Shown here: positions 11,263 through 13,110 of the stretch, in pieces | Position numbering within the stretch: the stretch's first letter is position 1 | Layout: the number at the start of each line of letters is the position of its first letter | NCBI GenBank assembly: GCA_000002435.2 | Contig: AACB03000033.1 | DNA length: 17,765 nt | Source of the DNA: Giardia intestinalis | Lineage: Eukaryota | Strand: one strand, 5' to 3' | Program-made: the position numbers and the translations under genes | Notes under the pieces: generated by a model | What the model was told of the DNA's origin: nothing | Databases searched by the model: none | What the model saw: only the letters and a program-made list of their open reading frames with translations

Positions 11263-13110
11263 GTGATATGTACAAAGGCCAGTAATGGACTGTGCACTGC
11301 TTGTAAGACAGATAACAAGTACATATTCCAGAACAGGGCAGACAAGGTGACTCCTGGTGGGGAGTGCATCTTGTGCTCTGATATCAAGGGAGCGAATGGA
11401 TATACGGGAGTGGCCAACTGTCTCAAGTGTACGGCACCAGGGAATGCAGGACCTGCCACGTGTAATACCTGTCAAGAGGGGTACTTCCTAAACAACAAGC
11501 TTTGTAAGCCATGCGAGGGGAACTGTGCCACCTGTGAGACATCGGCGACCCAGTGCACATCGTGTCCAGAGGGGAAGTACCTCAATGGGAATCAATGTAC
11601 TGATAGCTGTGGTAATGATAAGTATGCTGACCCGGAGTCGGGAACATGCAAGGCATGTAGTACGATACACGCAGAGTGCACGGCATGCTCCTTCGACAAG
11701 GCCACGGGGAAGCCGAAGTGCACTAACTGCGGGACCAATAAGACCCCCAGGACGGCCCTCGACGGGACATCGACCTGCGTGGCGAAGACGCTTGAAGGAT
11801 GCGAGGGCGCTGACGAGGCCTTATTTATGAAGGAGGACAAAACGTGTGCTCTTTGTAGTGATGTGACAGATTCAACTCTTGGTAACGAAGGAAAGGCCAA
11901 CTGCAAGACATGTACGAAAACAGGAAGTGACAATCCAACCTGCTCAGCCTGTCTCGATGGATACTTCTTTGATAGTGGTACTAGTACATGTACAGACAAG
12001 TGTGGTGATAACTGTGCCACATGCTCTGTTGCTGGTGATCCAAATAAGTGTGAAACCTGCAAGACTGGATACTTCTTAGTAACTACTACAGATCAACAGG
12101 GGAAGAAGTGCGTCCCATGCGATAGCGTAGACGATAAGGGTCGCGAAGGCTGCAGTGTCTGCTCTAACAACGGTGCTTTCAAGTGCACTGACTGTAAGCC
12201 TAACTATCGCAAGGAGGGCAGTACTGGCTCTGTCACATGCACCAAGATCTGTGAAGATGATACTGCCTGTGGAGGAACTTCTGGTGCCTGCGATGCAATA
12301 GTGATTGATGATAAGGGTGTAGAGCATCATTATTGCTCATACTGTGGAGAAGCTAATACGTATCCTATAGATGGGAAGTGTAATAGTGCTAAAGCAAATA
12401 ATCAATGTGATCAAGGTGTATGTACACAATGCACTAACAACTACTTCTTGTATATGGGAGGTTGTTACAAGGTTGATACAGTACCTGGACAACATATGTG
12501 CAAGACAGCAGCCAACGGTGTCTGTACCGCTGTTAATGCCAACAATAGGTACTTCATAGTCCCTGGGGCAACCAATCAGAATCAGTCTGTATTGGCATGT
12601 AGCAACTCCCTTGGCACACTAGTAGGCACTGGTGATACCTCTAAGGCATATGTGGGGGTAGATGGCTGTTCGGCATGCACGGCCCCAACAGCTCTGTCTG
12701 AGACTGGTATGACTGCTGCTGTGTGTACAGCGTGTACCAACAACAACAAGCCCAACCTGGCTGGGAGCGGGTGCTTCGCATGTACCGTTGACGGATGCTC
12801 GCACTGTGGAGCAGGCGGTAAGTGCGAGGCCTGTACCAGTAAAGACCAGAGGCCGAACACAGACGGAACGAAGTGCATCGCCTGCAATATCGACGGGTGC
12901 GTCAGGTGCAGCGAGGAGAACAAGTGCGGCCAGTGTGGGGACGACTACAGGCTGGAGGGTGAGGCGTGCGTGTCCACCAAGCCCAGCGGGGGCAACAGAA
13001 GCGGCCTCAGTACTGGTGCCATAGCAGGGATCTCCGTGGCTGTCATCGCTGTCGTGGGGGGCCTCGTGGGCTTCCTCTGCTGGTGGTTCGTGTGCAGGGG
13101 GAAGGCGTGA
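11263..13110 (+). CDS. vsp: VSP-family protein, unit 7 (615 aa from GTG). D/A chimera: the 5' part through ~11622 is type D (= unit 5), and the part from ~11631 to the end is type A (= unit 3).
   Basis: Direct comparison: 11263-11630 matches 7647-8014, and 11623-13110 matches 4153-5653. The crossover lies within the shared octamer TATGCTGA (11623-11630). Confidence 0.87.
   Translation: MICTKASNGLCTACKTDNKYIFQNRADKVTPGGECILCSDIKGANGYTGVANCLKCTAPGNAGPATCNTCQEGYFLNNKLCKPCEGNCATCETSATQCTSCPEGKYLNGNQCTDSCGNDKYADPESGTCKACSTIHAECTACSFDKATGKPKCTNCGTNKTPRTALDGTSTCVAKTLEGCEGADEALFMKEDKTCALCSDVTDSTLGNEGKANCKTCTKTGSDNPTCSACLDGYFFDSGTSTCTDKCGDNCATCSVAGDPNKCETCKTGYFLVTTTDQQGKKCVPCDSVDDKGREGCSVCSNNGAFKCTDCKPNYRKEGSTGSVTCTKICEDDTACGGTSGACDAIVIDDKGVEHHYCSYCGEANTYPIDGKCNSAKANNQCDQGVCTQCTNNYFLYMGGCYKVDTVPGQHMCKTAANGVCTAVNANNRYFIVPGATNQNQSVLACSNSLGTLVGTGDTSKAYVGVDGCSACTAPTALSETGMTAAVCTACTNNNKPNLAGSGCFACTVDGCSHCGAGGKCEACTSKDQRPNTDGTKCIACNIDGCVRCSEENKCGQCGDDYRLEGEACVSTKPSGGNRSGLSTGAIAGISVAVIAVVGGLVGFLCWWFVCRGKA

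Follow-up and report, generated by a model that had tools for sequence, protein, structure and literature searches.

The 17.8-kb window analyzed here (the whole 17,765-nt stretch of contig AACB03000033.1) is, by its sequence, a pseudo-variant-specific surface protein (pseudo-VSP) "linear array" of Giardia lamblia (assemblage A, WB-like), and the element of interest is its seventh unit (unit 7, or U7), an open frame in which the 5' part of one unit type is joined to the 3' part of another. Ten VSP units lie head-to-tail across the window, all on the + strand, with unit types in the order A (partial)-B-A-C-D-E-D/A-C-A-B (partial); the long open frames of the window run on the + strand only, with unit stops at 1834, 3718, 5653, 7579, 9380, 11195, 13110, 15036 and 16962. 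A pseudo-VSP linear array comprises at least three head-to-tail units separated by very short spacers, and this is the arrangement found: the spacers measure approximately 57-100 nt from stop to frame opening and are TGATAG-rich, with short tandem repeats of 8-10 nt. Every unit terminates in ...GLVGFLCWWF[V/I]CRGKA and a stop. At nine of nine stops, AGTGAAT was present as poly(A) signal 10 nt from the first base of the stop codon, in line with the family rule of AGTRAAY right behind the stop.

The frames open directly behind stop codons at W-S-[V/E]-I-C-T, a point that aligns with residue ~106 of P0003, an intact WB VSP bearing a signal peptide. At the 3' end, each cassette retains the transmembrane (TM)-CRGKA tail together with its stop codon and poly(A) signal. 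At the 5' end, the first ~105 codons of an intact VSP are missing, and so are its ATG, signal peptide and initiator element; without these parts, the cassettes are predicted to be silent-type copies, unable to be expressed on their own. The PyAATGTT initiator, which occurs in ~72% of non-array VSPs, was not found on either strand of the window, and the spacers hold only CAATG[G/T]G remnants, which resemble the VSP initiator CAATGTT. The spacers (e.g., 3719-3796, 11196-11262 and 15037-15105) also contain variable numbers of GTGATAG(TGT) repeats, the source of the TGA-TAG double stops; in other WB arrays, the same spacer repeat read in another frame appears as 'MLYSDSDS...' at the annotated N-terminus (P0006 and P0020). 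The complete cassettes (units 2-9) provide eight frames of 577-624 codons that are stop-free though inexpressible. Between cassette types, the ratio of nonsynonymous to synonymous substitution rates (dN/dS) was 0.14-0.34, with dS near or beyond saturation, and the types therefore diverged under protein-level constraint.

Unit 7 itself belongs to the Giardia VSP family. It matches the Pfam VSP profile (PF03302) with E=1e-36 and 127 bits (cut-off 31.4), has a Cys content of 12.4%, carries GGCY at aa 399 in addition to 28 CXXC motifs, and closes with a TM segment and the CRGKA tail, ...GLVGFLCWWFVCRGKA*, upstream of the family's poly(A) signal. Its best database match is XP_001705784.1 (G. lamblia ATCC 50803), which is 99% identical downstream of the first Met; the protein search with unit 7 returned 190 Giardia VSP homologues at E<=1e-20, and the remaining matches were likewise all Giardia VSPs. 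The first in-frame ATG is codon 189 (nt 11827), and neither a 5' ATG nor a signal peptide was seen (the sequence behind the codon-189 ATG is not hydrophobic; no dedicated signal-peptide predictor was used). Lacking an ATG with a signal peptide and the PyAATGTT initiator, unit 7 is not an intact, expressible VSP gene. The first-pass annotation of this DNA had read the first 125 aa, beginning with M, as the N-terminus; that reading has to be abandoned, since codon 1 is a GTG translated by the bacterial code, and unit 7 is a start-less cassette rather than a gene opening at 'MICTK'.

The features of unit 7 and of its counterparts in the array are the following:

Positions 11263 to 13110, + strand: open frame of unit 7, a pseudo-VSP cassette of 615 codons plus stop.
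Positions 11196 to 11262, + strand: spacer upstream of unit 7, equal to 7580-7646 except at 11198-11199.
Positions 11200 to 11630, + strand: D-derived tract of 431 nt, 100% identical to unit 5 at 7584-8014 (spacer plus the first 368 nt of the frame).
Positions 7584 to 8014, + strand: counterpart of the D tract in unit 5, a possible donor or recipient.
Positions 11623 to 11630, + strand: junction microhomology TATGCTGA, codons Tyr-Ala-Asp (aa 121-123), common to the D and A types.
Positions 11631 to 13110, + strand: A-derived tract of unit 7; with the 8-mer (11623-13110), 1488 nt near-identical to the A-type units.
Positions 4166 to 5653, + strand: counterpart of the A tract in unit 3.
Positions 13111 to 14963, + strand: continuation of the block held in common with the unit 3-unit 4 region, comprising a spacer and most of the C-type unit 8, matching 5654 to ~7506 with few, clustered mismatches.

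At its 5' end, unit 7 is indistinguishable from unit 5: not one of the 368 nt from 11263 to 11630 differs from 7647-8014, as the first-pass annotation had claimed, and its assignment of the upstream spacer to the D type likewise held for 65 of the 67 nt of 11196-11262. This spacer contains the poly(A) signal of unit 6 (AGTGAAT at 11203-11209), a CAATGTG initiator-like remnant and GTGATAG tandem repeats. From 11623 to the stop, unit 7 follows the A type, with 6 mismatches in 1488 nt to U3 (4166-5653), 6 to U1 (347-1834) and 14 to U9 (15475-16962); the first mismatch between U7 and U3 within the A tract falls at 12528. The A-type identity of the 3' part had been predicted correctly, but the start given for the unit 3 counterpart (4153) was off by 13 nt and is corrected to 4166; at the former offset, 1133 of 1488 positions mismatch. 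The C-type unit downstream, previously noted to mirror the arrangement behind unit 3, was also recovered, with unit 8 equal to unit 4 up to ~14963. In full, the A-C block from 11623 to ~14963 corresponds to 4166 to ~7506, a distance of ~3.3 kb with ~15 clustered mismatches; over its final ~75 nt, unit 8 instead has a 3' end of the A/B type.

The position of the switch was evaluated with a three-way informative-site test on the alignment of U3, U5 and U7, using the maximum chi-square statistic and 2000 permutations; an alignment of these units with breakpoint analysis had been suggested as the check on the chimera. Left of the junction, 158 of 158 D-type informative sites lie at or before 11622, while 632 of 632 A-type sites lie at or after 11631, and three more D-like sites occur inside the A part (12695, 12696 and 12818). 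The maximum chi-square of 774 was equalled in none of the 2000 permutations. The last D-specific bases before 11623 (sites 11617, 11619, 11621 and 11622) and the first A-specific base (11631) agree with those initially named, and the switch accordingly falls within the 8-mer TATGCTGA (11623-11630) that D and A have in common. The change of parent is abrupt, with near-identity on each side (0/431 and 6/1488 mismatches).

The two-parent switch is thus well founded, but the earlier description of the chimera as 'clean' is not, on account of a second D boundary and of small foreign patches in the A part. The left edge of the D tract lies at 11199/11200, four bases past the unit 6 stop, with 11198-11199 differing from the unit 5 region. 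Foreign sites in the A part include 12695-12696 (common only to U5/U6), 12678 and 12688 (common to U9) and 12528 (common to U6). At 12640-12720, 12528 and 12818, one- to few-base variants are patchworked among the units, with TG at 12695-12696 confined to U5, U6 and U7; a ten-site cluster at 12651-12672 is private to U9 and U2. This patchwork looks like very short conversion tracts; repeated short-tract conversion typically leaves foreign patches of the size seen in unit 7 and related units (1-20 nt).

At the right end of the D tract, TATGCTGA lies at the 5' border of an island of 41 nt over which the A and D types agree at 88% of positions; directly upstream of it, they are not alignable. The left end lies within a 13-nt poly(A)-signal block, GGTAGTGAATGCT (11200-11212), that is common to all spacers. 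Across the join, the reading frame is kept and homologous codons meet, and the frames to its left and right are intact. Overall, the A and D types are ~60% identical, and the 8-mer is one of 30 common runs of at least 8 nt; runs of 66 and 72 nt are located in the 3' region. Because the parents are only ~60% identical and the 8-mer is but one of 30 such runs, the event would have been of a short-homology (homeologous or microhomology-type) kind rather than classical long-homology recombination.

On balance, unit 7 is probably a genuine mosaic cassette that arose by non-reciprocal, homology-guided gene conversion between misaligned array members. The earlier proposal of recombination between array members is supported by the identity on both sides and by the one significant switch; unequal crossover, which had been offered as a mechanism, is less well supported. 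A conversion patch fits better than one unequal crossover because the D tract has two edges and because the left neighbours differ (U6 vs. U4). Conversion is also more economical, since a two-ended, non-reciprocal patch needs one event; within the 17.8-kb window, the tract is bounded on both sides and a reciprocal A5'/D3' unit was not found. Synthesis-dependent strand annealing and template switching are examples of pathways by which such conversion could have proceeded between misaligned cassettes. In the favored direction, the 431-nt patch (spacer plus 5' module, 11200-11630) would have been copied from a D-type cassette such as unit 5, and the recipient would have been an A-type cassette sitting between unit 6 and a C-type unit. 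In the converse direction, a ~3.3-kb block (the A 3' part plus the C unit) would have been copied onto a D-type cassette. The conversion tract would end in short conserved islands, namely the 13 nt of GGTAGTGAATGCT and the 8 nt of TATGCTGA.

Several observations weigh against gene conversion, or against confidence in it. An exchange over 8 nt between 60%-identical sequences is short for RAD51-type recombination. The 0 mismatches in the 431-nt D tract and the ~15 clustered mismatches in the 3.3-kb A-C block do not discriminate statistically (roughly P = 0.1-0.4, own estimate), and dating the two tracts relative to each other as a means of picking the direction was therefore discarded. The junction was seen in one assembled sequence, and no second copy of it was found by an exact 29-mer scan of metagenome contigs. 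Additionally, unit 10 (16963-17765) differs from unit 2 (1835-2640) by four single-base homopolymer indels (17091, 17650, 17696 and 17725) and by no substitutions, and these indels break its frame repeatedly. Rather than decay, such a pattern suggests errors left in the long-read consensus of an imperfectly polished assembly, close to where the window or contig ends; because of it, the assembly quality of the array is not beyond doubt. A protein-guided scan produced 210 pattern matches and no relatives, and a protein search with 254 aa across the junction returned nothing above 60% identity that covered the D 5' part. The absence of protein matches over the D 5' part is expected because annotations start at internal ATGs.

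The alternative that survives best, while still being unlikely, is a single unequal crossover between a D and an A unit (on a sister chromatid or homologue) within TATGCTGA, which would yield a hybrid unit and a duplicated downstream A3'-C block. Tandem arrays are prone to such crossover, and the right flank of unit 7 is colinear with the surroundings of the A parent, given the match of unit 8 to unit 4. The window also displays a higher-order duplication: U1-U2 (1-2639) is repeated as U9-U10 (15130-17765) at an offset of 15129 nt and 99.3% identity, which suggests an 8-unit higher-order repeat or a recent duplication of an A-B pair, reaching past the window. A crossover hybrid should be colinear with its parents' neighbors on both flanks, however, and here only the right flank is. 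The left flank departs from that of the D parent, as the identity to the unit 5 region ends at 11199/11200 and U6 differs from U4, the left neighbour of unit 5, being unrelated to it over most of its length; the unit behind unit 8 is A-type, not D-type. Because of the non-colinear left flank and the A-type unit behind unit 8, at least one further rearrangement would be needed.

A reversal of polarity appears quite improbable. In that case, unit 7 (D5'+A3') would be the older form, and unit 5 and/or the A-type units would have gained their other halves from cassettes outside the window. Three sequences and one breakpoint cannot single out the recombinant, and every cassette type is itself mosaic relative to other WB VSPs, as illustrated by aa 243-425 of unit 5, which are 97% identical to the intact P0031. 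The count of arrangements points the other way, with A5'+A3' seen three times (U1, U3 and U9) and D5'+A3' once, which is a parsimony argument only. An assembly or consensus artefact (a chimeric read, or mixed alleles or repeat copies in a tetraploid genome) is highly improbable: the array does hold kilobase repeats at 99-100% identity, the allelic variation of VSP regions in mapped reads is elevated (PMC7000408), long-read consensus error typically shows as differences confined to homopolymer indels, as in unit 10, and the searches recovered the junction in no independent copy, but assemblers mis-join in long common repeats and the parents share only 8 bases at the join and are otherwise unalignable 5' of it, so there is no long repeat at the junction for an assembler to collapse, the frame and the homologous codons are preserved across the join, and similar abrupt mosaics occur in many independently sequenced VSPs.

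Apart from unit 7, gene conversion among cassettes would be in keeping with the mosaicism seen elsewhere in the array, which includes a second chimeric boundary:

Positions 9297 to 9781, + strand: stretch from the 3' end of unit 5 through the spacer into unit 6 (its first ~350 nt), with 2 mismatches to the C-type 5570-6054.

In unit 6, the identity to the C type drops ~26 nt upstream of the position that corresponds by homology to the junction in unit 7. Units 6 and 7 are independent chimeras whose breaks both lie no more than ~30 nt from one conserved Tyr-Ala-Asp...Cys-x-Ala-Cys island, and this island divides a ~120-codon '5' module plus spacer' from the remainder of the cassette. Blocks of high identity also connect the array to database VSPs: aa 305-622 of U4 (region 6623-7576) are 99% identical to aa 431-748 of P0004, aa 31-192 of U6 are 97.5% identical to the intact WB VSP P0007, the P0031 block of U5 occupies region 8373-8921, and aa 262-445 of U2 (region 2675-3226) match P0003 at 181 of 184 residues. 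In all four cases, the flanks are only 45-70% identical, the edges are abrupt and the partners bear signal peptides. These shared blocks of 160-320 aa at 97-99% identity show, at the protein level, that the silent array and full genes exchange sequence, though not in which direction. P0002 (a singleton VSP of isolate DH) aligns over 928 nt with the 3' half of unit 2 at 90% identity and is uninformative for the junction.

The same kind of structure was seen across the family. Among 164 database VSPs, a breakpoint scan that defined an abrupt switch as a change between >=95% and <=70% identity recovered 266 abrupt breakpoints, spread along the full length of the proteins; mosaicism is, as far as these comparisons go, pervasive in the VSP family. 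A breakpoint hotspot at the Tyr-Ala-Asp island was rejected as demonstrated and is retained only as a lead: the 120-139 bin contained 17 breakpoints against a mean of ~9, which is not significant when corrected for ~27 bins, and the pairs are non-independent.

Archives of silent antigen cassettes occur in other organisms as well, among them the msp2 system of Anaplasma and the vlsE system of Borrelia. The closest likeness is to the vsp linear arrays of G. lamblia WB (Adam et al. 2010, PMC2996952; Xu et al. 2020, PMC7000408), which, like the window, consist of head-to-tail units with ~60-bp spacers, whose downstream members have no signal peptide, no PyAATGTT initiator and no proper start codon, and in which the CRGKA tail and poly(A) signal are conserved. 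Related members of those arrays also contain long 100% identical stretches, and recombination has been inferred for them; the published evidence is statistical (GENECONV and DualBrothers on 3' regions), whereas the junction described here is narrowed to 8 nt and its two candidate parents lie in one and the same array. The present results agree with earlier descriptions of such arrays as either a reservoir or remnants, and of recombination among VSPs (PMC2996952, PMC7641422). Reports of mosaic VSPs whose 5' regions are nearly identical go back to 1995 (Yang & Adam 1995, as cited in PMC13233330); as that citation presents them, they resemble units 5 and 7 in having a near-identical 5' part followed by abrupt divergence, and differ in being described as VSP genes, whereas silent cassettes share the 5' part here, upstream spacer included. 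The telomeric pseudo-VSP arrays of Giardia muris (Xu et al. 2020, PMC7641422) are likewise arrays of signal-peptide-less cassettes; they are transcriptionally silent, and phylogenies point to recombination or segmental conversion between them and central intact VSPs. Their tail is GCRGK, and the CRGKA found here therefore indicates G. lamblia and not G. muris.

A more distant parallel is the mosaic variant surface glycoprotein (VSG) system of Trypanosoma brucei, in which a silent archive of antigen cassettes is used for segmental, homology-templated repair in an organism without canonical non-homologous end joining (NHEJ) (PMC13233330). Junctions of mosaic VSGs are flanked by ~5-20 bp of imperfect homology, to which the short junction homology of unit 7 is similar, and Giardia has been reported to have lost canonical NHEJ, with mosaic VSPs known (PMC13233330). 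By analogy, a repair pathway of the mosaic-VSG type may act in Giardia. In T. brucei, as in the msp2 and vlsE systems, the recipient is the expressed copy and new mosaics are selected by antibody, whereas both partners are silent cassettes here; unit 7 is without all expression signals and is thus not an archive-to-expression-site mosaic of the VSG kind. VSP switching in Giardia is regarded as epigenetic or post-transcriptional.

Recombination among VSPs and the existence of start-less cassette arrays are already established (Yang & Adam 1995; Adam 2010; Xu 2020), and unit 7 is a base-resolved instance. Its junction displays an exchange of VSP cassette segments in frame and at homologous codons, across 8-13 nt of identity between ~60%-identical partners. 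It is therefore useful as a concrete case for two questions: by which repair pathway the VSP repertoire is shuffled, and whether expressed genes receive sequence from silent arrays. The current picture of VSP arrays is unchanged by unit 7, and its interest is modest unless transfer from cassette to gene is demonstrated. If short-homology repair at conserved islands regularly builds in-frame VSPs, Giardia would diversify its antigens much like the trypanosome with its mosaic VSGs. A maintained donor archive that is shuffled in modules, rather than debris, would be one description of the cassettes; this is suggested by the eight open frames with dN/dS of 0.14-0.34, the blocks shared with intact VSPs and the two chimeras at one island, and is at present rather doubtful.

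Two open frames on the antisense strand, at 1346-2452 (-) with 369 aa and at 6945-7859 (-) with 305 aa, were rejected as spurious, with no Pfam match to either; the long antisense frames are probably a by-product of codon composition.

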